Below are positions 7,968 to 47,393 of a DNA stretch of 56,366 nucleotides, in pieces; positions within the stretch are counted from its first letter, which is position 1, and the number at the start of each line of letters is the position of its first letter. Both the position numbers and the translations under genes were made by a program. The stretch comes from an uncultured Methanosarcinales archaeon (GTDB lineage: Archaea; Nanobdellota; Nanobdellia; Woesearchaeales; UBA525). The notes beneath the pieces were generated by a model. The model did no database searches. It had not been told where the DNA came from and was given only the letters and a program-made list of their open reading frames with translations. The stretch spans positions 1 to 56,366 of the forward strand of contig CAZPUM010000004.1 of the NCBI GenBank assembly GCA_964589765.1, written 5' to 3'.

Positions 7968-8647
7968 TTGCCCATTATTCTCCAACTGCTTATTCCCGAA
8001 GGAGACTTTGCAATTGCAAATTTCCTACCTTTCTTCTTCTTTGTAGCATAATCTGATGTTGTAAATGTCTTTTTAGCCCTGAGATCATAAAATTTCAAAG
8101 GAGCTTTCGCAGTACTCATCTTCTTCTTTGCCAAATAAATCACCTCTCGATTTTGTGGTTTAAGCATGAAATTCTTCACATCTTTATCTTCTACATCAAA
8201 ACCAGCCGCAAATGCATCTGCTCTGGCTTCTGCCATCTCAATGTCAGCATCAGTCTTTTTTCTTCTATAGAGTGCAACATGATGACCTAACTCGTGATCA
8301 AGAACATCTTTTTTAATTGCTTTACTTGAGAAATGCGTCACCTCGTGCTTAGGTTGCGCAAACACTAAAATTTCCCGCTTACCTCTGAGATATTGAGCCC
8401 ATGCGCCTTCTTGAGTCTTATTCCTTGGCTGAGTAAATCTGATCGCCTTTAGACCTTTTAAGTTATCTCTATCTTGTCTTGCTAAGAAACTCTTAGCATC
8501 TTTTTTAGTAATAGGATAAACCCTGCCTTTTTCATGCCGTTCAGCTATGATAGGAATAGTTTTTCTTACTTTACGTTTGGTATAAGTACGAACCCCTTTT
8601 GCTGCAAGAGAGTGCCTGAAACTATCATTATACCATCCTCGTCTCAT
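7964..8647 (-). CDS. GW-RH-tag family protein with HExxH zinc-metallopeptidase-like body
   Basis: N-terminus 'MRRGWYNDSFRHSLAAKGVRT'. Contains 'VLDHELGHHVAL' (HExxH). Confidence 0.7.
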   Translation of the reverse strand: MRRGWYNDSFRHSLAAKGVRTYTKRKVRKTIPIIAERHEKGRVYPITKKDAKSFLARQDRDNLKGLKAIRFTQPRNKTQEGAWAQYLRGKREILVFAQPKHEVTHFSSKAIKKDVLDHELGHHVALYRRKKTDADIEMAEARADAFAAGFDVEDKDVKNFMLKPQNREVIYLAKKKMSTAKAPLKFYDLRAKKTFTTSDYATKKKKGRKFAIAKSPSGISSWRIMGK

Positions 8648-9160: not shown

Positions 9161-12100
9161 CCTGAAGTCACCACTTGCCAAGCTGTTGGAGTATAATATT
9201 CCTGGTTGCTATTTGAGATAGGCATACTTAACCAGAGCGTAATCGAATTAGATGCACCATTACCAGGGAACAAACCGTAGTTTAAATCCTTTAAAATTCC
9301 ATCTGCAAGAAGTGTGGCATTTGTTAAATCATTTCCTGCTTTGAAATTACTGGCCAAAAGAGCTTCTGAACTATCAGTTCTACCTTCCAAATCATAAGCA
9401 CGCATGCTAAAATTCAGTTCAACATTTCCTGTGTTCAAAATAGTAACTGCAGGAGTACCTTGTGCATTATTAATTCCCGGACCTGCCGTAGGGAATGTAA
9501 CTGAATCAACTGTTCTTTGCGATGCTAACAGTTCAGCATACTCGCAAACGTTATTCACAGTGGTTGTAGCAGTCTTCCCTGGAGCAACTGTGACGTTTAT
9601 GAATAAGTCGTAGTCGCCTGGAACATAATAGTAACTCATAGGTATTGAACAATTATATGCATGTTCTGTAGAACTAGTAGTTGTAACTGAGCAGGTTGTC
9701 GTACTATAAGTGTTTGCACCTAAAGATACGCTAACCTCATTGATAGTGTCTTGAGTAATCCCTCCACCATAATTAACTGTGAAGTTCACAGGTATTCTAA
9801 CGGCTTCAGGCTGATCGTTTTCATTCGGATAAGTCAATGCTTGGCAAGTATTTTCTACAAATGTAGGAATTATATTTATGATGAAATCAACAGCATTTGT
9901 TCCTGCATCCGCAGTGAAATAATCATCTGAAGCAGTTACATAAACTTTACCTTGAGTAGTTTCAACAAACCAGTTATCTATGGTGTAATTTGTTACCGTC
10001 TGCGAACTAACAACAGTAGTGTTTGTGCCATTCAAATCAACTTTAACTTCATAAGCATATGTGCCAATTCCTTCTGTAGCTGCAGTCCAATTTATGCGCC
10101 AATAAGGATTGTTTGTAATTGTAACCCCGTCTGGCTGGACATTTGTAACTGGTTGCAACTTGCTAACATTGAAAGCATCTGTTGTATTAGAAGCACTAGC
10201 AGACTGATCATTGTAAGTCTCAGTTAATGTCACCGTGTAAATGTTCTCACCTACTGAGAAACTGTTAGTTGTTGCTAAACCATATTGCTGATCTTGCACT
10301 GTGAACTCACTACTGTTTGTAGTAGTGTTACCCAGAGCATTGTCAGACCAAGTTACGTTGATGTTTGTATCTGTTTCATTCCAGAACGGTTGTGAATTAC
10401 CTAGTTCATCTTTGACTGCTAAAGCATACACTCTTGGTAAAGGCTTAGTGGTGCCGTTAGCCTCTGCAATCTCGGAACCGTAAATCTTCACTTCATCAGA
10501 ACCATCAAAATAACCGGAAGCATTGAAAGTATACGTAGCAGTTGTTTCAAGCTCTGCAAATGTCAAATTATTAAGCTGGAATGTTGCATCAGTAAATCCC
10601 CCGCCAATAATATCATCAACTCTATCAGTTATATTACCGAAAGGCAATTCAACAACAGCAAATAAAGTGTTGTTTCTACCTAAATTAGCAGAAACAGATT
10701 GATTAACAGAAATAGCAAACTCATATTCAGTATCAGGATAAAGTGTAAACCTGGGCTCAAATAAGTTCTGCTGTGCTGTATTACCTCTTAAACCCGTAAA
10801 TGTAACTAACAGAAGCCCACTAGTCTCATTATATATTTTAAGAACTTGCGGAAGCCTTGAACCATAGTTATAACCAGTTATACTCCTTAACTGCTGAACA
10901 CTTCGGGGTTTATATGAAAAACCACCATAAACATCAGAAGTCACACTAGATGTAAGAGTGAATGTAAGTGCATTTAAATCATCAACAACTGTAATGTTTT
11001 CTGCAACATCAGTAAATTGGACATCAGTATCAGAATCGCAGAAATAAGTACCGTTACCGTTTTCAACACAGAAATTAGATAGTTGAACATCGTTATATTC
11101 ATCATAAAGATACGCAGTTAATTGTGAGAAAGGACTCAAGAACACAAAATCAACACTGGAATAATTACTTACATTCTTAGAAACCATACGATCTATGGAA
11201 TACTTCTCTGTAGAATTTGCCCAAAATTCCACATCAGGATAATTACCATCATAAGTAACTTCTGCCGATAAAGAACCATTAACAGTACACTCCAACCTAT
11301 CTTCAGTAGTTGAATCTATTATGGACACCACATCGGTCCAAGAAACGCAGAACAAATCTATTTGTCCGCCATTTGAAGCTGAAAAGTTTACCAACGTCAT
11401 TACTGGTAATGCAGATGTTCTTACTACTTTCGTAATATTTCTTGCGAGCCCTAATCTGTATGTAATTGTGCCACCATTATCGCTCCTATCTAGGACTTTA
11501 CCAACATTCTTCGGAAGGCTAGCCTCTCCAGAGTGCGCAACACTCCTTGTACCTTTATAACTGGTTGAACTCCATAATTCAACTTGATCTCCATCAAAAA
11601 TCGTCCAAATATAATCTTCCAATGCACCACTGTACCAAACAGTTCCGTTTGCTTGGTAAATAGTTACTCCCGTAGTAGTAAAATCATACCTAAAGCTATT
11701 TATGGGAGGATTTGCAGGAAAAGGAGTAGAAAAGTTCGTCCAAGCAATCTCTATGTTGTTTCTCTCAGTATTAGTCATGCCCGATAAATTGAAAAATAAA
11801 ACAACTGGATCACTGAGAGGAATTGTATCCGGATAAGGAGGAAGCGCTGTGTGATTACCGGGCACTCCATCGGCACGACTCCAATCAGCATCATAAACCA
11901 TATTTCTCTTCACTATAGAATACGCATTAAAATAAACCTCATCTTGACCCAGGCCAGAAGAGTTCATGGCAAAACCAGTTATATTAACATATTCACCTGA
12001 AGTAAAATTTACATCATAACTTGAATTAGTAGCATTACCGCCAGTATAATTTAGATAAAGAAAATTAGTCTCCGTAGATGCGTAGAATGGCTCCAACCCT

Positions 12101-14040
12101 CCGTATAATTCAAAACCACTAACTCCAGAATCCATTTGATCAACTGAATAAAGCATTATTTGAGACGTTTCTGGAGAACTGCTGTTTTCAACCGAATAAT
12201 TTGAGAAACCTGGAACTTCGTAGATTAACTCTGTTCCTGTGTTTTCCAAAAGACTACATTCAGTACATTCTACTCCGTCCCTATATATAACAGGATTCAC
12301 ATAATCATTAGCACTGTAAAATGTTAAATTAGCCGTTGTATTAACGTCTGAAGGCAGAGAACCACTATCTACGGAAACCCATCGATCTTGACCTGCCAAA
12401 TCATAAGACGTGCCACTATAAGTAATTGCATCTATCACTAGGTAGAAATTATCAAGAGTCATGGTTTCATCCCAACCAGCCACCCAAGTTATTTCACCTG
12501 AATCTGTAGGAGTCAAAAAGGCATCAGTCCCATATAAGTCACCTATTAAACAATAAACGTACACATTCTCCGAAGCTGGAACTTCTACTCCCGCACCAAA
12601 GTCAGCATAATAATCAGTACCTGAGCCAGTTATATTTGAAGTTGTACCCAGATCTCCAGAAGAATCCTCGATAGTACAAGAAGTAGGAGATGTTGCCGTT
12701 ATGTTAAATCCTATAATTGTCTGAGGACTATCGAACTGAACAACCATTCCCCACTCACTACTTACCGTACCGAAATTCGTAGACAAAGACTTTCCATGTG
12801 TTTCAGCAACTTCAAAAGATGAAGCTTCTCCTAGATTAACATCTAGTGCTACTGAAAAATTAGCTCCACTGAAATTCAAATCCGTTCCTAGCCACTTGAT
12901 AAGGAAATTATCAGTAACTGTCAGCTCAGGCGTCTCCAAATGTCTTGAATCAAAGGAAAATATTGAGTCAACGAAATCAGGCAAAACTACAGGTAAAGGA
13001 GGACCTTCAACAGGAACTCTGATCGAGTATATTTCATTACTGCCATCCGTTACCCAAATGTCGCCTGTGGCATCATCAATAGACACATACCTAGCTTTAG
13101 GCACACCAGTTTCTTCAGTTAACGTCATACTTGAAGCGCCCGAAGTTATATCTGCTGTAGTGTATAGCGCATAATTTCCTAAACCGTCAGCTACAGTAAA
13201 CGCACAAATGCTCAAATCATCAAGACACTCAACATCTAAAAACGCATTGTTTGAAGAATAATTTTTCTTTGACACTGTGCCGTCTATAATTGTAATTATC
13301 TCACCTGCAAAACTATTTCCTGATGTGATTGCTACTATGAATGTACTGTTTTTCACATATAAACCCGATATTTCATTTGAAGCATTTGTATCATACTTAA
13401 AAATAAAATCTTTAGTCACTGCATCTATTATGGACACATTACCGAAAAGATCAGCCACACCAAAGTAAGTTTCTTCAGAAGACATTGCGACCGCAACAGG
13501 ACCTACCAAATTAGGAAACTGAAAACTTTGCCAGGCCGCATCCGTTCCATTTCTAAATGTAACTACATCATCTGATTCAAATACGCGAGCAACCATATAT
13601 ATCTCGTCATTCACAGAAGCAACATCAATCTCCTCGAAACTAAACTCGTAAGAGGTCTCATCAGTTATACCATTTGAAGAAGAGAACCCTGAAATATAAG
13701 ATAAACGAAAACCATTTCTAACTACAGCCATAGTTCTATTTTCACTCATGTTCTCCACATAACTCCTAGAAGGAAACGAGAAACCATAAAACGAAGTATT
13801 GACTTCCTCAAACCAAGTACTTCCGAAATCAGTAGAAAAAGCATTAGCATATATATTGTCACCACTCGACCTTACTATAACACCATCACTGGCAAAAATA
13901 TCTCCGTTGTAAGAAGATCCTTCTAAATAACCAGTGTAATTATAGAATTGTAAAGATAAAACAGGCGTGGCAAAAGATATCATGAATAAGATAAACATAG
14001 TTGGTAAAACTATCTGCGCCAACCTTAATTTAGTTACCAT
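9157..14040 (-). CDS. giant secreted, N-x-S/T-dense surface, spike or adhesin-like protein (1627 aa)
   Basis: N-terminal hydrophobic signal or anchor. A perfect Asp-box 'STDFGSTW'. More than 50 N-x-S/T sequons counted by eye. Confidence 0.8.
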   Translation of the reverse strand: MVTKLRLAQIVLPTMFILFMISFATPVLSLQFYNYTGYLEGSSYNGDIFASDGVIVRSSGDNIYANAFSTDFGSTWFEEVNTSFYGFSFPSRSYVENMSENRTMAVVRNGFRLSYISGFSSSNGITDETSYEFSFEEIDVASVNDEIYMVARVFESDDVVTFRNGTDAAWQSFQFPNLVGPVAVAMSSEETYFGVADLFGNVSIIDAVTKDFIFKYDTNASNEISGLYVKNSTFIVAITSGNSFAGEIITIIDGTVSKKNYSSNNAFLDVECLDDLSICAFTVADGLGNYALYTTADITSGASSMTLTEETGVPKARYVSIDDATGDIWVTDGSNEIYSIRVPVEGPPLPVVLPDFVDSIFSFDSRHLETPELTVTDNFLIKWLGTDLNFSGANFSVALDVNLGEASSFEVAETHGKSLSTNFGTVSSEWGMVVQFDSPQTIIGFNITATSPTSCTIEDSSGDLGTTSNITGSGTDYYADFGAGVEVPASENVYVYCLIGDLYGTDAFLTPTDSGEITWVAGWDETMTLDNFYLVIDAITYSGTSYDLAGQDRWVSVDSGSLPSDVNTTANLTFYSANDYVNPVIYRDGVECTECSLLENTGTELIYEVPGFSNYSVENSSSPETSQIMLYSVDQMDSGVSGFELYGGLEPFYASTETNFLYLNYTGGNATNSSYDVNFTSGEYVNITGFAMNSSGLGQDEVYFNAYSIVKRNMVYDADWSRADGVPGNHTALPPYPDTIPLSDPVVLFFNLSGMTNTERNNIEIAWTNFSTPFPANPPINSFRYDFTTTGVTIYQANGTVWYSGALEDYIWTIFDGDQVELWSSTSYKGTRSVAHSGEASLPKNVGKVLDRSDNGGTITYRLGLARNITKVVRTSALPVMTLVNFSASNGGQIDLFCVSWTDVVSIIDSTTEDRLECTVNGSLSAEVTYDGNYPDVEFWANSTEKYSIDRMVSKNVSNYSSVDFVFLSPFSQLTAYLYDEYNDVQLSNFCVENGNGTYFCDSDTDVQFTDVAENITVVDDLNALTFTLTSSVTSDVYGGFSYKPRSVQQLRSITGYNYGSRLPQVLKIYNETSGLLLVTFTGLRGNTAQQNLFEPRFTLYPDTEYEFAISVNQSVSANLGRNNTLFAVVELPFGNITDRVDDIIGGGFTDATFQLNNLTFAELETTATYTFNASGYFDGSDEVKIYGSEIAEANGTTKPLPRVYALAVKDELGNSQPFWNETDTNINVTWSDNALGNTTTNSSEFTVQDQQYGLATTNSFSVGENIYTVTLTETYNDQSASASNTTDAFNVSKLQPVTNVQPDGVTITNNPYWRINWTAATEGIGTYAYEVKVDLNGTNTTVVSSQTVTNYTIDNWFVETTQGKVYVTASDDYFTADAGTNAVDFIINIIPTFVENTCQALTYPNENDQPEAVRIPVNFTVNYGGGITQDTINEVSVSLGANTYSTTTCSVTTTSSTEHAYNCSIPMSYYYVPGDYDLFINVTVAPGKTATTTVNNVCEYAELLASQRTVDSVTFPTAGPGINNAQGTPAVTILNTGNVELNFSMRAYDLEGRTDSSEALLASNFKAGNDLTNATLLADGILKDLNYGLFPGNGASNSITLWLSMPISNSNQEYYTPTAWQVVTSG

Positions 14041-20878: not shown

Positions 20879-21751
20879 TTAGATATCTTCTGAATTGGCA
20901 GACTTAAGCTCAGAATCAGAACCGTGACAAACTTCCCAGTATGCACACCGCCCATTACGCCATCTACAAGGAAACTTATTGCGATTATAGTTAACATTTG
21001 GAATAGTTCTATTTTCAACACAACATTTCAGATCTTCATACCAACGCTTAACTTTATTCACACGCCAATCTTCAATCTCCATAGGAAAATGAAACAGTTC
21101 CTGAGTATGCTTAGACTCATAAATTATTTCCCCTGTAACAGGAGCATTTGACATTAACAGAAGCTGTTCAGCCCTGTCTAAATCATCCCAATTTTCAAAT
21201 ACTTCTTTTAATTCGGACTCATCGTAAGTCATATCCGGAACAAGACCTGCTTCTATTTTCATTTGCCTTCTCCTAGACTCCCACATGAACATATACCACG
21301 TCAACTGCCCTTCGTGCTCATCTTTAGCCTCACGCACATAACTAGAGTTAATACTTTTAAACTCCACAACCACAAACTTACCTTTATAGAAAACTATTCC
21401 GTCACAACGGCCGTGAATATCTAAGTTATCTCTCGGTATGTCTATCTCCTCTAAAAACTCGTAATTCGGAGAAAGATGGAAGTAATTTGAAAGTCTCTCG
21501 TGAACATTCTCCCCATTATGAAATATTCTAAGAGTTCTCGGTTCAAAATCTTCTTGGCTATACTCTAACGGAAAAAACTGTAAACATATCTTTCGCATAC
21601 ACTGCCCGTAATCAGAAGCATACATACTTCTCGACTTATTGCCCCGTTCAGCCATCCTTCCAGCATTCCACATTCTAACTCCTTCATCAAGAATGTCCTC
21701 AAAAGGAGAGGAAAATTTCTCTTTCTTCTTAGGCTCTATGCGCTTTACCAT
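20879..21751 (-). CDS. cas4: Cas4-like PD-(D/E)xK nuclease with 4-Cys cluster
   Basis: 'YGQCMRKICL', 'GENVHERL', 'IHGRCDGIVF', 'VVVEFKS', 'GQLTWYMF' and C-terminal 'CRWRNGRCAYWEVC'. Confidence 0.8.
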   Translation of the reverse strand: MVKRIEPKKKEKFSSPFEDILDEGVRMWNAGRMAERGNKSRSMYASDYGQCMRKICLQFFPLEYSQEDFEPRTLRIFHNGENVHERLSNYFHLSPNYEFLEEIDIPRDNLDIHGRCDGIVFYKGKFVVVEFKSINSSYVREAKDEHEGQLTWYMFMWESRRRQMKIEAGLVPDMTYDESELKEVFENWDDLDRAEQLLLMSNAPVTGEIIYESKHTQELFHFPMEIEDWRVNKVKRWYEDLKCCVENRTIPNVNYNRNKFPCRWRNGRCAYWEVCHGSDSELKSANSEDI

Positions 21752-24700
21752 TATTTCTTCCCCCGTTTAGTTCCTGGAATTATCCATTTACCAGCCATTT
21801 CCCTAGTCATACGAACACGCTCTGCAATTTCATTAGGAACCACTCCTGCATTGTATTCAGGATAAAGTTTGTTGATTATTTGAATCACCCTGTCTTTAGG
21901 AATATAACCTAACTTCTTAACATACACTTTCTCTGCCTGTTTAAATAGACTTGAACTCATAACTGCATCTGCACGCTCTTCAAACGGATCATCTTGATTT
22001 TGACCTAAGAGCTTCTCCAAATGCGCATCTTTTTTCGCCTCATATGCTTCCATAAACTCTTTTGTAGCAAGACTATTTCCATTTTCATCAACTTTCAAAG
22101 GAGAAGGAATTTTTATGTGTCCAAGAGTCTGACGTTCCCTGGTCTTAAGCGCCGCAACTGACTCTTGAGTTTCTTTATCAATAAACAAAACTTCTATGAC
22201 ATACATGCTCGTGTTAGACTCACTGTGAAGCACTGGAGAACAGAAAAATAAGTGAATAGACTTCTTTCTAAGCTGCTCCTTCAGACCTTGAAGTATAATC
22301 ATAACTCTATTGCTGTCAAGACCGTATGATTGACTCTGCTCATCAAGAAGAACTGCAGAGTGTGGTTTTAACTTATGTCTATTTCTTACCAAATCATCAT
22401 AACTGAAAAATATCTTATTAACTGTGAAATCAGGATCCATCATACGACATAAAGATATTGCCGACCAACTATTGTGTGTAAGAAGACCTCCATTCACAAC
22501 AAACAAAGAATCATCCGCATCTACTGAAATATCTAAACAAGAGTGAATTCCAGCACAGCTTATCTTGCAGACTGTTCCAAACTTCGCATCCAAATCCGTA
22601 GTATTTACTACAGGCCTAGTTCTTCTGAATTCTAAAAGACTTTTTCTGTTCTCTTCGTTTTGACCTATCAATTTCAACGACTCTAAATATTTTATTCCTT
22701 GCTTAACTGGAAACCTAATACGAACATATTCTCTACCTTTCCAAGGACCTGACTTCAACTCCCTAATAGTAACAGAAGGAAAATGGCCTAAAGAATGCAT
22801 CAAATCCAGTATCTGACAACCCAATTCTCTCGACTTCACCATGTGACCTATTTCATATTTATAACTAGTCCCATTCCTGCCGTAATTACAAGTTAAATCT
22901 CCTGAAGCATATCCTTCTAAGAAACCTTTCATACCTTTTTCAGTTTTGAACACGCTTTCAGGAATACTCTTGCAAATCGAATTCGCACCACACTCTTCTA
23001 AAAAACTCTTGGCCTCTTCTTGACCATAAGCCATCAAAACAAACTTGCCATTCCCTGAAGCATTGTTCAACCGAACGGATGTGAAACCAAACTCTTTTTC
23101 TACATACTGCTTCACTTTTTTCAAAAAGGTATTGCAATTATTACTGAACATTAAATAACTGCCCTTAGCACCAGTATCGTCTGCAATAAAAGCACCATAC
23201 ACAAACGCTTTACGGTAATCAGAATCACTTCCTTTTTCTTCTGGTTCGAAGATTCTAGTTTTGATAACGTCGCCCACATTCAACTGAGAAGCCTTCTTCA
23301 CTTTACCACTTTCTAACTCAAATTTATGGTCTAAAGAGACAACCACTGGAACTGAAGAATGAGAATTTATCTTCAAACAATCTTTATCTTCAACTTTAAA
23401 TCTCTTCAGAACCTTTGTATTTAAAGAAGAACCTGATATAACAGCTCCTTCAAACAGATCTCTCAACTTACAATAAATACCGTTATCTAAACGCACAGAT
23501 TCTTGCACCGATATACACTTACCGACGCCCTGACTTCCTGTGATACTACAAATCAAACTGTGCTCTAAGTTCGGGTCGGCCCTTTCAAAGACTGTATTAA
23601 AAAAGATTTCAGAATAGTCACAATTATGAACTAATATGCCGCCACCCAAACAAAAAAGACTATCTTTATCGACCGCAATATCAACACACTTTCGTTCCCC
23701 CACTTCTTTCTTCCACCTAACTACAGGAATACGCACACCATTTTCAATTATTGGAACCCTGTATCTAATAGTTGACAACTTTTCATCCAATTCACTTAAT
23801 CTTTTCAAAACATCATCTTTACTTTCTGATTTTTTCTTAGTGTGAATAATCAAATATTCTAAAAACTCCTTAACTTTATTTGCCCCAAATCCTATTCTAT
23901 AGTATCTATACCTATTTTCAGGGATTTTTCTTCTCTTTCCGGGATAATAATCCCTGTGTTCCAAATCTGGATAAAATCCCGCAGACCAAAGAGCTCTAAG
24001 TAGAATCTGAGCTACGGAATCAAAAGAAACATTGAATGCTACTGAAATCACATTCTTTTTACCAGTTACATTAACTCCAAAGTCGCAACTAGCAAAACCA
24101 TGTATGAATCCATCTCTAAACTTTTCCTGTTGTAATAAATTCTTAGACACTTTCTTATGTTGATCTCTAGATAGCTTTCTACCAGAGTACCCATATTTTT
24201 CTATAATTTGCTCAACCCCTTCCTTACCGTATAACATAAGTCTACAGCAATGCTCCATACTGATAATTTTATACGACGTCAACTTGAACTTCTCCAAAGC
24301 AATTTTGCCTAATTTATCTAAAAATTCATAATCACCATTACTAATGGAGCAATACCTAGTTCCACTACCGGAAGCAGTTTCAGACGTTTTAAACACACAA
24401 CCACATCCATCTGCCAAATATGCTCCTGCAAAAAGACCTTCCTCATAATCTCCTCCCTTCTCCACAGATAATTTTACTGCAGCCAACAGTTCTCCTTCTT
24501 GCAAATCCTTTGCTTTTTTGATATCTCCATTATGAAGAACTACTGGATGATCTTCTGAAACAGTGAAGGGAACCATACAATCAGTATTAATTTCTAAACA
24601 TTTCTTATTAGCATATTTTTTAGCCAAAACCCTTCTATTTGCTCTTCCTTCTACAACATCTCCAACTTCAACATCTGTTATTTTCTTCAACTCATCATTC

Positions 24701-24822
24701 ACAAACAGATATTCATTTTCCTCAACACAATCAAGAAATCTGTAGAACGTACCATCAGCATCTTCCCTAAGCTCTATCACATCTCTAACTTCTTGCGGCA
24801 GCTCATTGAAATCAATCGCCAT
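21751..24822 (-). CDS. P-loop NTPase (putative genome-packaging / terminase-like ATPase) interrupted by two inteins
   Basis: Spliced product is about 305 aa. Walker A 'GSQGVGK|S' is split by intein 2. Walker B 'AVLLDEQ'. No nuclease domain recognised. Confidence 0.7.
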   Translation of the reverse strand: MAIDFNELPQEVRDVIELREDADGTFYRFLDCVEENEYLFVNDELKKITDVEVGDVVEGRANRRVLAKKYANKKCLEINTDCMVPFTVSEDHPVVLHNGDIKKAKDLQEGELLAAVKLSVEKGGDYEEGLFAGAYLADGCGCVFKTSETASGSGTRYCSISNGDYEFLDKLGKIALEKFKLTSYKIISMEHCCRLMLYGKEGVEQIIEKYGYSGRKLSRDQHKKVSKNLLQQEKFRDGFIHGFASCDFGVNVTGKKNVISVAFNVSFDSVAQILLRALWSAGFYPDLEHRDYYPGKRRKIPENRYRYYRIGFGANKVKEFLEYLIIHTKKKSESKDDVLKRLSELDEKLSTIRYRVPIIENGVRIPVVRWKKEVGERKCVDIAVDKDSLFCLGGGILVHNCDYSEIFFNTVFERADPNLEHSLICSITGSQGVGKCISVQESVRLDNGIYCKLRDLFEGAVISGSSLNTKVLKRFKVEDKDCLKINSHSSVPVVVSLDHKFELESGKVKKASQLNVGDVIKTRIFEPEEKGSDSDYRKAFVYGAFIADDTGAKGSYLMFSNNCNTFLKKVKQYVEKEFGFTSVRLNNASGNGKFVLMAYGQEEAKSFLEECGANSICKSIPESVFKTEKGMKGFLEGYASGDLTCNYGRNGTSYKYEIGHMVKSRELGCQILDLMHSLGHFPSVTIRELKSGPWKGREYVRIRFPVKQGIKYLESLKLIGQNEENRKSLLEFRRTRPVVNTTDLDAKFGTVCKISCAGIHSCLDISVDADDSLFVVNGGLLTHNSWSAISLCRMMDPDFTVNKIFFSYDDLVRNRHKLKPHSAVLLDEQSQSYGLDSNRVMIILQGLKEQLRKKSIHLFFCSPVLHSESNTSMYVIEVLFIDKETQESVAALKTRERQTLGHIKIPSPLKVDENGNSLATKEFMEAYEAKKDAHLEKLLGQNQDDPFEERADAVMSSSLFKQAEKVYVKKLGYIPKDRVIQIINKLYPEYNAGVVPNEIAERVRMTREMAGKWIIPGTKRGKK
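22471..23517 (-). mobile_element. intein 2 (349 aa) with LAGLIDADG domain, inserted in the P-loop
   Basis: Starts 'CISVQESVRL' after GVGK. 'SLDHKFEL'. LAGLIDADG motifs 'FVYGAFIADDTG' and 'FLEGYASGDLT'. Ends 'LLTHN' followed by +1 Ser. Confidence 0.8.
23623..24729 (-). mobile_element. intein 1 (369 aa) with LAGLIDADG homing-endonuclease domain
   Basis: Starts 'CVEENEYLF'. Block B 'TVSEDHPVV'. LAGLIDADG motifs 'LFAGAYLADGCG' and 'FIHGFASCDFG'. Ends 'ILVHN' followed by +1 Cys. Confidence 0.8.
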
Positions 24823-39883: not shown

Positions 39884-41461
39884 TTACCGTCTTGATACCC
39901 AAGTCAAATTTATACCATCATCTTCATAAACTGTTGTAACATTTTTAAAATCCCAATCTTCAAGCTTTCTATAAGAACCATCTTCAGCCACTATGACTAT
40001 TCCCGCAGCTTTATAATAGTAAAAACCGGAAACATTTGGTAAAGTCAAATTCCAATATATCTGATCAGAGTTTAAAGCATCAAATCCTGCAGTTGCAGCC
40101 TGTCTAGGACTTATTTTGGTACTTACAATATGTTTCTTTTTTGTACAACCCACTTCATAATCATCAATTATAGATGGCAATGCACTGAAAGGAGACTCAT
40201 GAAGAACATACTTATCAACACAAGGAGTTGCTTGCATAACCCTATCTAACTCGTGGTGACTCGTGATCATATAAAGATAAGACAAGAACAAAAATATGGC
40301 TATGCAGAGAATAAACACCATGTTTCTCCAAACAACTTTCTTCAAAGAGGTAAACAACTCTACCATCACTACAATGAAAGCAAACCACATCACCACTAAG
40401 AAGAATCTATGGTGGTAAAGATGTGCAAAACCATCTCCCCCGAGCAAAGGTGCCAGTAAAAGCCCTACCATCGGAAGGACTAATGCTACAAGAGCACTAA
40501 CTCTGAAAACATACCTATTATCAATTCTTTTTTCTTTAAGCAATCGATAAGCAAACCAGAGGATTAAAACTACAAACAAAAACATAGACAAAGTAACTAT
40601 GTCGTGGTAAAACATTGGAGCATCTGTCGTTCCCACTTGTTCTAAATGGAACCAACCGTATATCATTGATGAAGGCCAAGATTGCAAAGAAGGAGGTTGG
40701 AACCACATACCATCTCCACGTGCTTTTTGCTCAAGAGCAAGACCTAAAGCATTACTCGTCCCTGCACCTAAAAAAACTAGCAAAACCAGTGCAACAACTA
40801 AAGCACTTTTCCAACCTGAACGTATTTGCGTTCTGAACAACACATACATGCAAATGAAACACGCACCTATGAACCCTGAATAATAGTGAACATTTGGCAA
40901 AATCAATATCGCAAACAAAACAACAAAAAGTAACAAAGGACCTTTTGGACTCAACCAGTATATCTCATCTACAACTATTAACATCCAATCATAAGCATTT
41001 ATTCCCAGAGCAACCAAGAACAACATCAACGCATAAGACCTTGCTTCAGTTCCATAATGAAGATATGTACTAGCAATCGATAACAGCAACAAAGTCATTC
41101 CAGCAGGTTTCTCCTCATAATGCCTATAAAGCCAAAGACCTGCAAGAAGAACAAATCCTGCCATCAGAACAAGAGAGAAAATTCTGAGCCACTGTGTGAA
41201 ATCTACGCCTGGATTTAACTTGTGCCAAACAGCTAAATACCAGTAGTATGTAGGAGGATGAACGTCCATCTCACTCCAATCAATATGTTCTCCAGCGTCC
41301 AATTTAAGAACCATTGCTGCACTAAAACTCTCATCGAACCATTGCTACCAGTACTCTCGGTCTACAACAAAGATGTTAAACAAACCAAAGAGTACAAACA
41401 GCAAAACGCAAGCTGCCAAAATATAACGCTTCGCATGATCACCTCCTGGCTCTTTACTCAT
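39884..41461 (-). CDS. GT-C fold (PMT_2/ArnT-like) polytopic glycosyltransferase with in-frame TAG at 41345-41347
   Basis: ORF track gives 39884..41314. The same frame upstream encodes 'MSKEPGGDHAKRYILAACVLLFVLFGLFNIFVVDREYW*QWFDESFSAA', i.e. TM1 plus a DE motif. 'HPPTYYW' follows. A promoter lies 19-31 nt upstream of ATG 41461. Confidence 0.6.
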
Positions 41462-41573: not shown

Positions 41574-42027
41574 ATACAATCATCCTTAAGAAATACTTAA
41601 ATGTTTCTAATAACGATTTAAGATACTAAAAAACACCAAAAATATGGCAAGTGGAGGTGGTCTTAGAAATAGTAGATAAAGTACAAACGCCACCAGAACA
41701 GACTTAGTTTAGGCGTTTTAGGCTGACAAGCCAACTTCAATCGTCCCTGTGAAAGACGGTTCCTTAATTTTGGGCGGTGGTAATTACTCAGCAAGGCTGA
41801 GAGTCAGGTTCGTTGCCACCATGTAACCGACTGAACGTCGGATAAAAACTAAAGGTCGCACGACCTAAAAGTTGCTCCCGCCAGAGCAACTAACTCCTTT
41901 TTTATTTGGGCGGTGGTTTCGGCATCGCTGAGGTCAGGATGCCTTACTAACACTCTTCCTAATTTGGTGGTTGAGGTGGAACGGTTTCCTCACGCTCCCT
42001 AATCAAGAGCTTAAACCTTGCCTGGCC
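41574..42027 (-). ncRNA. candidate structured noncoding RNA (G+C-rich, hairpin-dense, no ORF)
   Basis: Own copy of the promoter motif at 42046-42067. Stems include GTTGCTC/GAGCAAC, CTCAGC/GCTGAG, GGCATC/GATGCC, CCGAC/GTCGG and AAACGCC/GGCGTTT. Minus-strand 'ACCACCGCCCAAA' occurs twice plus one variant. Confidence 0.45.
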
Positions 42028-42045
42028 ACAACATAAGATTCTATT

Positions 42046-42067
42046 GCCAGTATATAAACTTACCTAT
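42046..42067 (-). promoter_or_regulatory. class-2 promoter motif copy (plus gccagtatataaacttacctat)
   Basis: 21/22 identical to 43819-43840. Minus TATA is TTTATATA. Confidence 0.5.
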
Positions 42068-42071
42068 GTTT

Positions 42072-43823
42072 CTATAACGATTTAGGATACTCCACAGCAA
42101 AATTCATGAAATAATTCTTAGCATCCTCTGAAAAAGGATAGACATATTTGTGCTTACCCGGAACTAACTGTCTTTCACAATCAGAATAACCAACACCATC
42201 TTTCTCCATAGACTTTTTGAAAAATCTTCCTGAATATACTTTGCCCGTATTAGATATATATTGAGTGACAGGAACAGTTCTTCCCAGATAGAGAAAATTT
42301 GCAGCTTGGTATATAGTACCTGTATGATTTACATTACTATCTGCAAACGTCTTTATAAAATGCACATTAAGGGCAGAACCTTTAATTTTCTTAATAAACT
42401 TAGCCAAAACTTTAGAAGCCACAATAGAAGTTAAATCTTTCAATGCAAATCTGCGCAATTCTAATCCACTCAAACCTGCTTCATCCTTAGTGGAAGAAAC
42501 TCCTGCCAAACCTATCAACTCACCATTTTCCAAATATCCATAACAAGTACAAGAACCTGGAAGAGTTTTCAAATAATGATATTTTTCAAGAAATTCTACT
42601 GCAAGCGACCTACTAATAGTTTTCACCTCAACACCTGCAGATTTTCCCTTCTTTCTAGATAACCTAGGTTTTATATATTTTAAACAACTTAAATTACAGT
42701 AAATGGAGTTTCCATCAGTCGACTTGTAAAAATTCTTGGATTTTAGAAAATCCAAAACTTTTTTCTTCGACTTATCTGGCTTTATGGCAAAAGAACAATA
42801 CTTATCACTTAAACTACCATCACCGTCAAACAACCCACCTAAAAAATGAGGAGCATACTTATTCTCAAACACCCAAGAGAAACCAGCATCTATAAAATTA
42901 ATCCAATCTCCTTTGACTCTCACATTACCTGCATCTAAACCTTCTTTAGTAGCAAAACAAGGCAGCAAATCAACTGAGTATATGCCTATAACATAATAAT
43001 CTCCAAAATTCTTCTCACCTTTATGCTCCCAAGAACCCGTCCTAACATACTTTCTAGAAGTCAAACCAAATAATTTTTCAGCCACTTTTGCAAATTCATC
43101 TGCAAACTCCGCATCCTTTGGATGGACAGTCAAAGTCATTCCAGCAGAGTTAAAACATACATCCGAACACACAACTCCTAATAAATAAGCAAGATCCTCT
43201 GATTTAACTCTCCAATTTTCCTTTATGCAACGTCTTGCAGTTCCAAACAATTCCCTACGTTTAAGAGAAATAGAGACAGCACTTCTATCAGGAAGTTTCT
43301 TTAAAAGCTCCGATGTTTTTAGATTCTGATTAGATTTTAAGACATCAAGCTCTTTATCAGTCCATTTACTTATCTTAGAACACACAAGATTATGATTGAA
43401 TATAGCATGTTTTATTGCACGAGTGGTTCTTCCCAGAGATTCTTCCAATTCTTCGAAACTCTTTGAATGATAATTTTCCTGCAAATAGATAAGCTCTTCT
43501 TCAGTCCACCTATCTGATCTAGACAAACCTATAGAACGTGCCTTAGCACTTATGGCTGTCCAAGACCTATTAAACTGATTGACTAAATCTTTTATCTCAC
43601 CAGTTTCAAAAACTTCTTTCAGAAATTCTTCTTCTCCTAAAGTCCAGCCCTTATCTTTTCCTCTAGTAAGACCCAATCTGTTTGCTTTTGCACGAATAGC
43701 TCCTTTATCTCTTTGAAACAAAGCTTCCAGTTCTTTCCAAGATTTAACAACGTAATTTTTTTTTAAAAGTTCCAATTCAGCTTCTGACCAAGTAATTACC
43801 ACAATATGAGATTTAATCGCCAA
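42072..43823 (-). CDS. Myb/SANT-like x4 + double-LAGLIDADG + Mom-like (GNAT-fold) domain fusion protein, paralog 1
   Basis: Four W-x2-EE...R-x3-I repeats. 'LAYLLGVVCSDVCF' and 'FLGGLFDGDGSL'. 'YHYLKTLPG', 'ELRRF', 'HTGTIYQAANFLYLG', 'GKHKYVY'. The start is TTG 43823 or GTG 43802 (no ATG). TAG stop. Confidence 0.65.
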   Translation of the reverse strand: MAIKSHIVVITWSEAELELLKKNYVVKSWKELEALFQRDKGAIRAKANRLGLTRGKDKGWTLGEEEFLKEVFETGEIKDLVNQFNRSWTAISAKARSIGLSRSDRWTEEELIYLQENYHSKSFEELEESLGRTTRAIKHAIFNHNLVCSKISKWTDKELDVLKSNQNLKTSELLKKLPDRSAVSISLKRRELFGTARRCIKENWRVKSEDLAYLLGVVCSDVCFNSAGMTLTVHPKDAEFADEFAKVAEKLFGLTSRKYVRTGSWEHKGEKNFGDYYVIGIYSVDLLPCFATKEGLDAGNVRVKGDWINFIDAGFSWVFENKYAPHFLGGLFDGDGSLSDKYCSFAIKPDKSKKKVLDFLKSKNFYKSTDGNSIYCNLSCLKYIKPRLSRKKGKSAGVEVKTISRSLAVEFLEKYHYLKTLPGSCTCYGYLENGELIGLAGVSSTKDEAGLSGLELRRFALKDLTSIVASKVLAKFIKKIKGSALNVHFIKTFADSNVNHTGTIYQAANFLYLGRTVPVTQYISNTGKVYSGRFFKKSMEKDGVGYSDCERQLVPGKHKYVYPFSEDAKNYFMNFAVEYPKSL

Positions 43824-43840
43824 TATATAAACTTACCTAT
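43819..43840 (-). promoter_or_regulatory. class-2 promoter motif copy (plus gccaatatataaacttacctat)
   Basis: The TATA lies 22-29 nt upstream of GTG 43802. Confidence 0.5.
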
Positions 43841-43859
43841 CAACAACAATAAAACATAG

Positions 43860-43866
43860 AAAAAAA
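43860..43866 (-). terminator. T7 run after the coat-like gene pair
   Basis: Minus CCTTTTTTTCT, 35 nt after the stop at 43901. Archaeal terminators are T-runs. Confidence 0.4.
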
Positions 43867-43900
43867 GGAGTTCTTCGTCGTGAACATTGTACTACTGTTC

Positions 43901-44071
43901 TTATCTGAACAAAGCGCCAAGTTTGACAAAGATACCAATTATAAAGCCTAGAACTATAAGCAATACGATAAGGTCTAGCCATTCGACTACTGCAGCACCA
44001 GCAGTGCCCAAACCGTCTTCTACGATCAGTTGCAGGTCGTCCCTGTCATATCCGTTTCCAGTGTATGTCAT
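43901..44071 (-). CDS. 56-aa hydrophobic coat-like (candidate major structural) protein, copy 1
   Basis: Hand translation: MTYTGNGYDRDDLQLIVEDGLGTAGAAVVEWLDLIVLLIVLGFIIGIFVKLGALFR. GGAGGTGA SD. Below the ORF-track cutoff. Confidence 0.65.
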   Translation of the reverse strand: MTYTGNGYDRDDLQLIVEDGLGTAGAAVVEWLDLIVLLIVLGFIIGIFVKLGALFR

Positions 44072-44129
44072 GTTTTCACCTCCGTGAAATTTCTATCAGT
44101 GTAATTAAAACAAGGATTGTACTATTCAT

Positions 44130-44300
44130 TTATCTGAACAAGGCGCCAAGTTTGACAAAAATGCCCACGATAAACCCTAGCACTACTAGCAAGACAATTA
44201 GATCAAGCCACTCGACAATAGCAGCACCTGCAGTGCCCAGACCGTCTTCTACAATTAGTTGAAAATCATCTCTCGAGTAGTTGTTTCCGGTATAAGTCAT
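44130..44300 (-). CDS. 56-aa hydrophobic coat-like protein, copy 2
   Basis: Hand translation: MTYTGNNYSRDDFQLIVEDGLGTAGAAIVEWLDLIVLLVVLGFIVGIFVKLGALFR. GGAGGTGAAACT SD. Confidence 0.65.
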   Translation of the reverse strand: MTYTGNNYSRDDFQLIVEDGLGTAGAAIVEWLDLIVLLVVLGFIVGIFVKLGALFR

Positions 44301-44344
44301 TCAGTTTCACCTCCAAAGTTTATGATACTACTCTGATTCGGTGG

Positions 44345-44353
44345 TTTAAATAT
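44345..44353 (-). promoter_or_regulatory. TATA-box-like element for the coat-like gene pair (leadered, SD-containing mRNA)
   Basis: Minus ATATTTAAA, 45-53 nt upstream of ATG 44300. Confidence 0.4.
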
Positions 44354-44359
44354 GCATGC

Positions 44360-44397
44360 AAAAAATGTTAAACTTTTAACTGCATGTTGTAAAACAT
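44360..44397 (-). terminator. two short hairpins + T6 run after 44400..46028
   Basis: Stems ATGTT/AACAT and GTTAAA/TTTAAC, then TTTTTT on the minus strand (44360-44365). Confidence 0.45.
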
Positions 44398-44399
44398 TG

Positions 44400-46028
44400 T
44401 TACATGATAGGATTTGAAACAAAAACCCACTTTCCTTCACTCAAAACTTTCCACTTCAAATCAGAATGTTTAGGATATTCTTTTGACCACACAACTTTAG
44501 ATAATTTAAGACAGTTTTTCTCACTACCAGTCAAAGAACAGAAATATCTAAACTGTTTGCCTTGTATCATCTTAAGACCTTTTTCATCCATGAAATCTTC
44601 TTTCAACCAATTGCCTCCTCCCTGTTCCTTGCACATAGACTTAGTGGAAGAAGGATGGATAACTTTCAAATCCTCATCTAAATAACGCCTAGTCCAAATG
44701 TATCCTCCGTATAAAAAACCTGCAGATTGATACACATATCCTGGTCTGCCCATCACCCCGTCTGCCCAAGTATACAACACTTTCTTCTCAGGATATTTTT
44801 TGATTATCTCCTTGCGAACCCTGCTTAAAAACTGACTACCAAAACCCCTGGGCAACTCATTTAGAAAACACATTCTACCTATCTCCCAATAATCTTTAAC
44901 AGTTATATCGCTAAACAACTTTTCAATAGTGTGCTTAGGATACAACCCATAACCCAACGTGATCGCACCTAAAACAACTCCTTTATGTTTAGCTAAAAAC
45001 ACAGTATGAGTAACTGCAGGGAAAGTATTACTATAATGATGACGCATTACAAAACGTTTGACATCCTCACTCAAACCAGACTCAACCACATCAAAATCCA
45101 CTTTCTTCGAACCTCTGAACTGTCCCCTTACATAATTCTCATAGATTTTCTTTTTTCTATCCAAATAAACAACAGAATCCTCATAGAATCTTCTCAGTAC
45201 ATCATAAGAACCAGAATACAACTGAACCACCCAAACTCTTTGAGTATGAAACAAAGACTTCTCAGGAACAGACAATCCCGTCCAAGAAATAAAATCCAAC
45301 AAAATCTCTTTATGATATGAGCAAATTCTAAGTTGCAAACCTCCACTCGCGGTAACTGCTAAAGAACCATCTCCATCAAAATACCCTCTCCAAAAATGCA
45401 CATTAAGACTTTTGTCTAAATTGGGCACCCGTATTTTTTTATAAGTTTTATTTGGAACACAACCGTGTTTAACCAGATCACTAACTATTGAATCAGACCT
45501 TATTCTCAAACCATAATGTTTCTTCTTTTTATAAAAATGCAACTTCCCTTTAAAACAAAGAGCCTTCTTTAACTTCAACACGTGCTCGCGATCTTTAAGC
45601 GTCAAACCCAACACATTCTTATGAACACAACCATCAGCCATCAAAAAACCCAACCAATAAGCTTTTTCCTCACAATCTATGTTTGAAAAATAATCGTTAT
45701 CAACATCAGATCTCTTAGGACCTTTACGCCTCATATCGGCCTCATCCTTTATATATTTCCAAATTGTCTTCGGACAAAACCCGAACTTCTCAGATATTTT
45801 AGCTAAAGTCATACCTGACTCATACATAGAAACAGCCAAAGATTTATCAAAATCTGCTTTTCTCTCAGGTATTACAATATTGTGCCTCTTACACCATTTC
45901 CAAAGAGAAACATAAGTCAAACCAAGTTGCACAGCTGTTTGTCTAAGAGACACCCCTTCAGACAGATTTTTGATGATAAACTCATGTCTATCTTTAATCT
46001 GCTTAGTTTTTATATCCATAACTAACAT
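44400..46028 (-). CDS. HTH + double-LAGLIDADG + Mom-like domain fusion protein, paralog 2
   Basis: 'AYWLGFLMADGCV' and 'FWRGYFDGDGSL'. 'HHYSNTFPA', 'RPGYVYQSAGFLYGG', 'GKQFRYF'. The true start may be ATG 46019. Confidence 0.65.
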   Translation of the reverse strand: MLVMDIKTKQIKDRHEFIIKNLSEGVSLRQTAVQLGLTYVSLWKWCKRHNIVIPERKADFDKSLAVSMYESGMTLAKISEKFGFCPKTIWKYIKDEADMRRKGPKRSDVDNDYFSNIDCEEKAYWLGFLMADGCVHKNVLGLTLKDREHVLKLKKALCFKGKLHFYKKKKHYGLRIRSDSIVSDLVKHGCVPNKTYKKIRVPNLDKSLNVHFWRGYFDGDGSLAVTASGGLQLRICSYHKEILLDFISWTGLSVPEKSLFHTQRVWVVQLYSGSYDVLRRFYEDSVVYLDRKKKIYENYVRGQFRGSKKVDFDVVESGLSEDVKRFVMRHHYSNTFPAVTHTVFLAKHKGVVLGAITLGYGLYPKHTIEKLFSDITVKDYWEIGRMCFLNELPRGFGSQFLSRVRKEIIKKYPEKKVLYTWADGVMGRPGYVYQSAGFLYGGYIWTRRYLDEDLKVIHPSSTKSMCKEQGGGNWLKEDFMDEKGLKMIQGKQFRYFCSLTGSEKNCLKLSKVVWSKEYPKHSDLKWKVLSEGKWVFVSNPIM

Positions 46029-46033
46029 CTAAA

Positions 46034-46047
46034 GAAGTAGTATTTAA
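46034..46047 (-). promoter_or_regulatory. class-1-like promoter motif
   Basis: Plus GAAGTAGTATTTAA. Confidence 0.45.
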
Positions 46048-46076
46048 TTATTTCCTATTATTTCCCGTATACGCCA

Positions 46077-47393
46077 CTAAACATAACTCTTCTCGTCCCA
46101 AAGACACTCCTTCTCCCATTTAGAATCTCTAAAATAAATAAACTTATGTTTACCTGCAGATAATTCAGCTTTAGTACCTTCAGGAAAAGACCCTTTATAA
46201 TTACGAACCATCCCTTGAGTTAACCTTTCCCCATTAGGTAAAACGGCTACTAACTCAGGACAAGAAGATCCGTAATAAACAGCATTTGTTGCCTTATATA
46301 TTGTCCCGGAATGACCTACTCCATCATCAGCATAAGAAACAACCGCAGTTTTATCCTCAAAATCTTGAAAATATTTCTTAATCAACTTAGCCAAAAACTT
46401 TGAAGACTCATTTTTGATACTGTTAATAATACAAAAACGTCTCAACTCAGCCACTTTACTCCTGTTTTCTTTACCAAATATTTTGAGAACGCCTGCAGAA
46501 GATGGGTTACCTATTACTCCAACACCTTTTAACTTACCGCCAACAAACCACCCATACGACGTAACACCTATAGGCATAGACTTCAGATAATGATTAGCAA
46601 CAATAAACTCTCCAGCAACAGAATGAGATATAACACTAACTCCATCTTGCATAGAATCAGATTTCTCTTGTGCAAGAACATATTTCCTATCTAAAAAAAT
46701 ACTTGCATCTCCGTATAAAACATCCAATAATTTTACACCTGAAGAGCCGCTAACAGACGCTCGCCAAACACTGCCTGCACGCGAAACCGACCCATTGAGC
46801 CCTAAAGATTCAACAAACCTTGTGAATCCTTCACAAACTTCCTTGGTGCCTACCAATTCTACATCCGTCCTACTTTTACCATATCTTCTAGATGCAGGAA
46901 TAGAACCATCTCCATCCACCATTCCTCGCCAAAAATGATTTTGAATATTTCCATCTAAAATAGGGGGCTTCAAAGAAAAAGTCTTTCTAGGAGTTACTCC
47001 GTGATTCTTCAAACCGTTAGCCAACCTCACACTTTTGAAACCTAAATAAGATGTCGTTTCAGAATATCTTTTAACTCGTGATACAGGCAACCCAACAAAC
47101 TTACAGAATTTCTTCAAATGTTCTTCATCTTCTCGTTTCAATTCAAGCTGTATCTGATTAGCATCAGTCACATTGCCATCTGCAGCTAAAAAACCTAACC
47201 AATATGCTTTCTCCTCAGAGTCTATAACATCAAAAACAGTTTCATTACATTCAGACTTAGTTTTCCTAATATGTACCCCTTCTTTATTCAAAACATTACA
47301 AACTTTCTGCACACTACACTCTGCCTTCTCAGCAATTTTAGGAGACGACATTCCTAATTTGTATAACTTAACCATTTCTGAGTCTTCCATCAT
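46077..47393 (-). CDS. HTH + double-LAGLIDADG + Mom-like domain fusion protein, paralog 3
   Basis: 'AYWLGFLAADGNV' and 'FWRGMVDGDGSI'. 'NHYLKSMPI', 'ELRRF', 'SYADDGVGHSGTIYKATNAVYYG', 'GKHKFIY'. Confidence 0.65.
   Translation of the reverse strand: MMEDSEMVKLYKLGMSSPKIAEKAECSVQKVCNVLNKEGVHIRKTKSECNETVFDVIDSEEKAYWLGFLAADGNVTDANQIQLELKREDEEHLKKFCKFVGLPVSRVKRYSETTSYLGFKSVRLANGLKNHGVTPRKTFSLKPPILDGNIQNHFWRGMVDGDGSIPASRRYGKSRTDVELVGTKEVCEGFTRFVESLGLNGSVSRAGSVWRASVSGSSGVKLLDVLYGDASIFLDRKYVLAQEKSDSMQDGVSVISHSVAGEFIVANHYLKSMPIGVTSYGWFVGGKLKGVGVIGNPSSAGVLKIFGKENRSKVAELRRFCIINSIKNESSKFLAKLIKKYFQDFEDKTAVVSYADDGVGHSGTIYKATNAVYYGSSCPELVAVLPNGERLTQGMVRNYKGSFPEGTKAELSAGKHKFIYFRDSKWEKECLWDEKSYV

Follow-up and report, generated by a model that had tools for sequence, protein, structure and literature searches.

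We analyzed a 56,366-nt stretch of DNA (positions 1 to 56,366 of contig CAZPUM010000004.1, assembly GCA_964589765.1; this whole stretch is hereafter called the window) and found three minus-strand open reading frames (ORFs), named P1, P2 and P3, each of which joins DNA-binding helices, a double-LAGLIDADG nuclease core and a full Mom domain in a single polypeptide. P3 occupies 46077-47393 (438 aa), P2 occupies 44400-46028 (542 aa) and P1 occupies 42072-43823 (583 aa from TTG 43823). The LAGLIDADG-Mom architecture is real and apparently undescribed, and a literature search found no published description of such a protein, in agreement with what an earlier sequence-only reading of this DNA had supposed. 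The domain identities, the retention of both catalytic centers, the distribution among relatives and the existence of unfused intermediates are all direct observations. The best explanation of the genomic arrangement is that these cassettes occupy two intergenic hot spots flanking a very conserved structural-type gene for a 55/56-aa protein. P1-P3 are best explained as free-standing LAGLIDADG homing-endonuclease genes, that is, as mobile accessory cassettes with a fused Mom payload, a reading that we consider about as likely as not. The sequence-only reading had listed three same-strand genes of 583, 542 and 438 aa, and their ORF coordinates and lengths were confirmed; it had also called them tandem, which is not strictly so, since P3 adjoins P2 but two tandem 56-aa genes stand between P2 and P1.

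The C-terminal parts of the three proteins (P1, aa 386-583, 42075-42668; P2, aa 306-542, 44403-45113; P3, aa 246-438, 46080-46658) are true Mom-family GNAT domains. The similarity to Mom had previously been proposed from motifs, and profile search bore it out over nearly the full length of the Pfam Mom profile PF25680 (E 1e-22 to 1e-34). P1, P2 and P3 scored 86.3, 120 and 80.8 bits, respectively, against a cut-off of 27.1 (E 2.9e-24, 1.4e-34 and 1.4e-22), and covered positions 3-202, 10-202 and 4-200 of the 202 in the profile. All three also match phrog_1384 ('Mom-like') in PHROGs, and P2 aligns directly to the Mu Mom structure 8bv8 by phmmer (E 9e-8). Among the AlphaFold 2 (AF2) models, the Mom domain of P1 has a predicted local distance difference test score (pLDDT) above 90, and the P3 model matches Mu Mom 8bv8_B in Foldseek with an E-value of 3.2e-7 and a template modeling (TM) score of 0.59 on the target; the Foldseek comparison with the PDB covers the P3 model only. 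The motif series given for the C-termini in the sequence-only reading holds in degenerate form, but its exact strings are not found in all three proteins: 'HHY' is exact in the 542-aa protein only (the other two have YHY and NHY), and 'ELRRF' and 'GKHK.Y' are found in P1 and P3 but are replaced by EIGRM and GKQFRY in P2.

The active site of Mu Mom is lined by H58, Y59, R111, S124, D149, R151 and Y159 (PMC13219725). According to the 8bv8 and family alignments, P1-P3 and almost every relative retain equivalents of six of these seven residues (H58, Y59, R111, S124, D149 and Y159). The exception is R151, whose position is taken by N, V or G, with a basic residue (H, R or K) three positions further on. 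The consensus of the nearest solo Mom homologs likewise lacks R151 and shows the same pattern. Another feature of Mu Mom is an essential helix-turn-helix (HTH)-like insertion at residues 175-209 (PMC13219725). At the site of this insertion, where there is no residue-level Mu alignment, P2 has a long segment and P1 and P3 have about 24 residues with one short helix. P3 itself apart, all 119 of the nearest Mom homologs listed are stand-alone proteins of 249-319 aa. According to Silva et al. 2026 (PMC13219725), Mu Mom uses Gly-tRNAGly as the donor of a glycine that is attached to adenine N6 in double-stranded DNA and then rearranges on the base. The carbamoylmethylation named in the sequence-only reading therefore needs to be updated to glycyl transfer from Gly-tRNAGly with subsequent rearrangement.

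The double-LAGLIDADG cores lie in the middle of the proteins (P1, a divergent core, aa 200-385, 42669-43226; P2, aa 109-305, 45114-45704; P3, aa 51-245, 46659-47243). Their identity, also part of the sequence-only reading, was upheld by Pfam LAGLIDADG_3, which gave 25.8, 30.7 and 27.0 bits for P1, P2 and P3 against a cut-off of 22.5 (E 1.3e-5 for P1 and 5.5e-6 for P3), and all six of the LAGLIDADG motif strings noted earlier are present verbatim. Moreover, the N-terminal halves of P2 and P3 are matched over their entire length by phrog_4645 ('endonuclease'), with E-values of 1e-45 to 1e-46. The AF2 model of P3 (pLDDT 84) consists of a three-helix HTH, a double alpha-beta-beta-alpha-beta-beta-alpha core and a GNAT domain; its top Foldseek match in the PDB is I-Tsp061I (E 8.5e-11, TM 0.67), followed by dozens of other LAGLIDADG enzymes and WhiA. 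The motifs end in ..CSDV and ..DGDG in P1, ..MADG and ..DGDG in P2, and ..AADG and ..DGDG in P3. Both metal-binding LAGLIDADG aspartates are kept in P1-P3 and in 34 of 34 related proteins with this core, a count that spans the window, related loci and further clusters. In three comparisons of orthologs, identity in the nuclease half versus the Mom half was 44 vs 46%, 45 vs 47% and 44 vs 35%. Because both catalytic aspartates are kept and conservation is about equal in the nuclease and Mom halves, these sequences argue for an apparently active nuclease and not for an inert address module, and the 'scaffold' of the sequence-only reading is not supported.

As that reading had also stated, there are no Hint or intein blocks around these cores: none of the Hint and Intein_splicing families of Pfam matched P1-P3 at E≤1. 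An intein or intron origin of P1-P3 was rejected, given that neither Hint blocks nor an intron match was found. WhiA, a protein that lacks the catalytic acids and carries its HTH at the C-terminus, likewise combines a double-LAGLIDADG core with an HTH, and its name has been attached by mistake to relatives in source annotations. In contrast to WhiA, the fusions keep the acids, have the HTH at the N-terminus and continue into a Mom domain, and the NCBIfam WhiA model reached only 11 bits against a cut-off of 44.

The view that the N-termini of P1-P3 are DNA-binding helices is supported, again as previously proposed. In P1, four Myb/HTH-like repeats (aa 8-199, 43227-43802) of about 47 aa align with one another (W..E...L....R..I) and are modeled as four three-helix units; they give a sub-threshold match to Pfam Myb_DNA-bind_6 (E 0.009) and match phrog_323 at E 2e-23. 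P2 has two HTH units (aa 1-108, 45705-46028), with a match to Pfam HTH_23, and P3 has one (aa 1-50, 47244-47393).

Among all ORFs of the window, a profile search confined LAGLIDADG and Mom to P1, P2 and P3. Beyond the window, a word-indexed search of 5.8 billion proteins returned one other full-length fusion (P0002), the rest being stand-alone HTH-LAGLIDADG proteins. An exhaustive HMMER search with a full-length profile against 1.84 billion representatives at 50% identity added about 27 clusters that span both halves, with lengths of 418-654 aa. When 34 sequences (alignment A5) were searched with Pfam, Mom was found in 32 and LAGLIDADG_3 in 28. The 10 clusters that were looked up are all metagenomic, with source names of 'hypothetical', 'transposase' or 'WhiA'. 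Fusions were absent from the matches listed in a family-profile protein search, which were dominated by stand-alone LAGLIDADG proteins, and nothing in 50,697 phage records covered at least 80% of a fusion query. A nuclease-motif search of IMG/VR revealed no Mom domain near the nuclease in the retrieved flanks of the 80 best loci.

P1, P2 and P3 share only 20-36% pairwise identity per domain, and domain-wise BLASTP gave different relationships for the two halves. The nuclease cores of P2 and P3 are 36% identical (E 2e-25) and that of P1 is barely related to either, whereas the Mom domains of P1 and P3 are 34% identical (E 1e-23) and those of P2 and P3 only 24%. The nuclease of P3 is thus of the same type as that of P2, whereas the Mom domain of P3 is of the P1 type, so that the halves appear to have been shuffled. 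Each type also has its own orthologs in related genomes: P1 in L088_586 (43% identity over 583 aa), P2 in P0002 of locus L003 (41% identity over the full length, with conserved synteny), and P3 in five proteins with 36-40% identity in L084, L088, L089 and L090. On account of these separate orthologs and of the conflicting domain trees, P1-P3 are, to judge by sequence comparison, three ancient types rather than recent duplicates, and the 'triplicated' of the sequence-only reading is not supported. The set of fusion types varies between genomes. The idea that P1 is a recent insertion unique to the virus of the window was rejected, as P1-type orthologs are found in the same place in L088, L089 and L129. 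Besides these types, a P2-type Mom domain is linked to a zinc-ribbon/HNH nuclease in P0266. The same family of HTH-LAGLIDADG proteins is also found fused to the N-terminus of N4/N6 DNA methyltransferases in P0048 and P0056, inserted in frame in a C5 DNA methyltransferase (P0076) and combined with DnaB_C in P0063.

All six fusions with readable genomic context lie beside the gene for the 55/56-aa protein (P0002 in L003; P0251, P0248, P0244, P0250 and P0264 in L084-L090 and L093). The neighborhood, which these fusions share with the window, begins with genes for a glycosyltransferase, a HIRAN protein and a protein of about 490 aa, followed by genes of about 95 and 120 codons and the fusion gene or genes; after these come one to four 55/56-aa genes, an optional P1-type fusion, genes for proteins of about 265 and 330 aa, and genes for very large proteins. 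The 55/56-aa protein has one C-terminal membrane helix and is 70-90% identical across elements, compared with 30-50% for its neighbors, and its one to four tandem gene copies have strong ribosome-binding sites; it is probably the major structural protein of an unclassified virus lineage. The window holds two copies, recognized by sequence reading: small gene a (44130-44300, minus strand), which encodes a 56-aa protein with a C-terminal transmembrane helix and has a GGAGGTGA ribosome-binding site, and its tandem copy, small gene b (43901-44071, minus strand; direct repeat D1), with 89% amino-acid identity.

Used as an unbiased probe, the 55/56-aa protein retrieved 71 loci from JGI metagenomes; no relatives of the 56-aa protein were found in 185,579 genomes or in IMG/VR. 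The state of each slot was determined by profile searches of the ORFs in these 71 loci and by tblastn with the flanking window proteins. Among the 20 loci in which the upstream slot is fully covered, the slot contains a fusion in four and a nuclease-only ORF in one, and is empty in 15. The downstream slot occurs in four states: a fused P1-type gene, an unfused pair, a nuclease-only gene (L113) or nothing. Two kinds of unfused pair were observed. In L094 and L095 the ORFs overlap, the ATG of the Mom gene lying 14 nt before the stop codon of the nuclease gene, and in L109 and L110, two independent contigs, an in-frame stop codon stands at the domain border. Relatives thus differ in whether and in what form they carry the fusion unit, which is therefore an accessory cassette; it stands beside the most conserved gene of the genome and is present or absent in the manner typical of homing-endonuclease genes that are free-standing. 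This accessory and partly unfused occurrence speaks for the mobility of a homing endonuclease no less than for an addressed modification machine.

If P1-P3 are indeed homing-endonuclease genes with a Mom payload, the HTH/Myb heads and the LAGLIDADG core would together bind a long DNA site, the nuclease would cut this site in related genomes that lack the cassette, and recombinational repair would copy the cassette in. The Mom domain would attach an aminoacyl group (in Mu, glycine from Gly-tRNAGly) to adenines of double-stranded viral DNA at N6. Host nucleases, and possibly the nuclease of the cassette itself, would then spare the carrier genome, and this benefit would keep the whole reading frame under selection. 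In this scheme, DNA cleavage and homing are inferred, as are the modified base and the protection that it would give. Several points weigh against the interpretation. The LAGLIDADG part of P1 has diverged and is modeled with low confidence by AF2. Mu R151 has no equivalent in the fusions, which carry N, V or G there; P2 lacks W48, a dimer residue of Mu Mom; and the active-site loop of the P3 Mom domain (356-379) has a pLDDT below 50. Orthologs with about 40% identity in conserved positions imply that the cassettes have resided there for a long time, contrary to what is usual for purely selfish homing genes. Finally, loci reached via fusion proteins are biased toward carriers, and the unbiased set consists of JGI metagenomes only. 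If true, a homing endonuclease with a hypermodification payload would illustrate how a selfish nuclease persists, namely by carrying useful cargo, and tRNA-dependent momylation, to date demonstrated for phage Mu and two mined homologs only, would extend to an apparent archaeal virus lineage.

It is possible, though somewhat unlikely, that the nuclease and the Mom domain share one DNA-reading module, in which case adenines in or next to its own site would be aminoacylated, the carrier would become immune to the cassette's nuclease, and unmodified sites in relatives or in the host would be cut. This would represent a natural 'homing restriction-modification' enzyme, a meganuclease-addressed base modifier dependent on aminoacyl-tRNA, in an archaeal virus. 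More generally, natural single-chain fusions of a long-site reader with a base modifier would, if confirmed, be of interest for targeted DNA modification tools.

An unlikely alternative is a single-chain weapon resembling restriction-modification, in which the nuclease attacks host or superinfecting DNA, the Mom domain marks the virus's own DNA, and mobility is secondary. Both the precedent and the logic for nuclease-Mom fusions have been published: Mom fused to nucleases of the restriction-endonuclease fold in jumbo phages was read as DNA attack combined with protective momylation (Iyer et al. 2021, PMC7824862). The conservation of both catalytic centers would fit such a weapon, as would the fact that nuclease and Mom stay together even as separate genes, and two to three cassettes per genome with different heads would broaden the target range. 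Mom is joined to at least three nuclease folds (restriction endonuclease in the literature, HNH in P0266, and LAGLIDADG in P1-P3), and N4/N6 and C5 DNA methyltransferases are further partners of the same nuclease family; however, HNH, LAGLIDADG and PD-(D/E)XK are all classical homing-endonuclease folds, and their recurrence is equally expected from homing genes. LAGLIDADG enzymes recognize sites of about 14-40 bp, and such sites would yield very few cuts in a foreign genome, making for a poor general weapon. In addition, the cassette is absent from most relatives, and PADLOC reported no defense family match.

The sequence-only reading had itself offered another model, in which LAGLIDADG and the heads form a non-cutting reader that delivers Mom to defined sites, the three paralogs being three addresses. 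The physical fusion to DNA-binding modules with diverged heads agrees with this, and non-cutting LAGLIDADG proteins do exist, WhiA being among the fold matches. It would also be consistent with the shorter segment of P1 and P3, relative to P2, at the site of the DNA-contacting insertion of Mu Mom, since binding may have been handed over to the fused domains. However, domesticated non-cutting LAGLIDADG proteins typically lose the catalytic aspartates, both of which are kept in every member here, and a Mom domain tethered to one site of about 20 bp is hard to square with genome-wide protection from restriction. Because the nuclease residues are universally kept, unfused and nuclease-only versions occur in the same slot and the distribution is sporadic, we consider this model quite unlikely. 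Very unlikely, finally, is an uncoupled accident, in which a selfish homing gene merely rides on a mom gene or a Mom-like domain acts on an acyl acceptor in protein or RNA: in-frame homing-endonuclease insertions do occur in phage DNA-modification genes (PMC11855218; compare P0076), a variant of the same virus (L001) has a 20-bp deletion that splits P1, and Mu R151 is not conserved, but the pairing recurs with two Mom and two nuclease subtypes, both as gene pair and as fusion, the fusion is collinear with 41-43% identity over the full length in orthologs, and the Pfam Mom profile is kept from end to end, as are six of the seven residues of the Mu active site.

Conceptually, the homing-cassette architecture proposed here for P1-P3 is close to known nuclease-Mom fusions and to free-standing homing endonucleases. 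The novelty claimed in the sequence-only reading apparently holds for the LAGLIDADG-Mom fusion itself, but not for the Mom-endonuclease concept, which had already been published for restriction-fold nucleases of jumbo phages (PMC7824862). Like those proteins, P1-P3 combine a DNase and Mom in one polypeptide; they differ in that the nuclease is of the LAGLIDADG fold, with long recognition sites and HTH/Myb heads, and in being small accessory cassettes of a non-jumbo lineage with a sporadic, homing-like distribution. Compared with Mu Mom (8bv8, PF25680), the C-terminal 190-235 aa or so of P1-P3 match the whole Pfam profile. However, the Mu protein is stand-alone, whereas Mom in P1-P3 follows 245-385 aa of DNA-binding and nuclease domains; R151, which is essential, and W48, a dimer contact, are not kept in the fusions; the DNA-contacting insertion is shorter in P1 and P3; and the host of the fusions is probably archaeal. 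The third comparison is with the free-standing HTH-LAGLIDADG endonucleases of phages (phrog_4645; for example, those of Twort-like phages of Staphylococcus), which match the N-terminal 300 aa or so of P2 and P3 end to end. Hundreds of stand-alone proteins of about 300-370 aa also match this part of P2 and P3, and an intergenic site beside a conserved gene and sporadic presence are common to both groups, but the phage proteins stop after the nuclease core.

The element that carries P1-P3 is an uncultured, undescribed and uncharacterized virus lineage of non-jumbo type. It is absent from IMG/VR, PHROGs and phage records, and can be recognized by its 55/56-aa gene. All genes of the window lie on one strand, and its GC content is about 37%. 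Pfam and PHROGs searches of about 25 neighboring proteins were almost all blank, 20 kb of the window had no megablast match in the 50,697 phage records, and Rfam found nothing credible in the whole window or, at a relaxed threshold, around the fusion genes. A tRNA scan of the window detected none, so that there is no virus-encoded tRNA-Gly there. In the window, five start codons, several of them without a Shine-Dalgarno motif, are preceded at a distance of 27-41 nt by TTTAWATA boxes (TTTAAATA or TTTATATA on the minus strand, with first bases at, for example, 50058, 39882, 34370, 27819 and 14067). Among relatives, 12 of 30 TTTAWATA boxes lie 24-34 nt before a start codon, including those of fusion genes without a Shine-Dalgarno motif. 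This spacing suggests archaeal TATA boxes with leaderless mRNAs, and on that ground the lineage quite probably infects archaea.

A TTTATATA box at 43824-43831 (minus strand), presumably an archaeal-type TATA box for a leaderless P1 mRNA, bears on the start of P1. P1 probably begins at GTG 43802 (576 aa), because the spacing of 29 nt between box and start matches that of the P1 ortholog in L088; the same spacing also precedes other genes of the window and genes in relatives. A 99.8%-identical contig (L001) from the sister sample SRR7048221 lacks 20 bp at window positions 43195-43214, so that P1 is divided into two proteins, one of 210 aa with the repeats and one of 366 aa with LAGLIDADG and Mom; the deletion is either a population variant or an assembly error. 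The stretch of about 600 nt on the 3' side of P1 (41470-42091, minus strand) is ORF-free and richer in G+C. At its beginning, adjoining the P1 stop codon, the promoter and 5' end of P1 recur as an 86% copy (42026-42067, minus strand, versus 43799-43840; direct repeat D2). A 27-nt sequence from the 3' end of P1, present on either side (42066-42091 versus about 41601-41627), brackets the stretch, which also holds ACCACCGCCCAAA two times. No similar DNA was present among the fetched loci. The possibility that this stretch is a group I intron or another known RNA was rejected for now, in view of the lack of an Rfam match and a folding z-score of only -1.6.

Two further arrangements were observed near the cassettes. 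In the window, the gene for a 476-aa multi-pass membrane protein (39884-41314, minus strand; weak EpsG match) lies downstream of P1, whereas most relatives have it upstream of the genes for the 100-aa and 125-aa proteins; this difference in position indicates a rearrangement around the cassette hot spot. In L093, a fusion and a 56-aa gene are followed by opposite-strand genes for TnpB/IS605 OrfB, Band_7 and a presenilin-type signal-peptide peptidase (7082-8281, 11862-12728), which may be a virus-host junction or a provirus. Elsewhere in the window, a 1023-aa ORF (21751-24822, minus strand) matches Intein_splicing, unlike P1-P3. It encodes a P-loop ATPase (GSQGVGK|S) split by two inteins (C...VHN|C and C...THN|S), one of which lies inside the Walker A motif, and each of which has a degenerate LAGLIDADG core. 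A PD-(D/E)XK nuclease gene (20879-21751, minus strand) adjoins this intein-bearing ORF.

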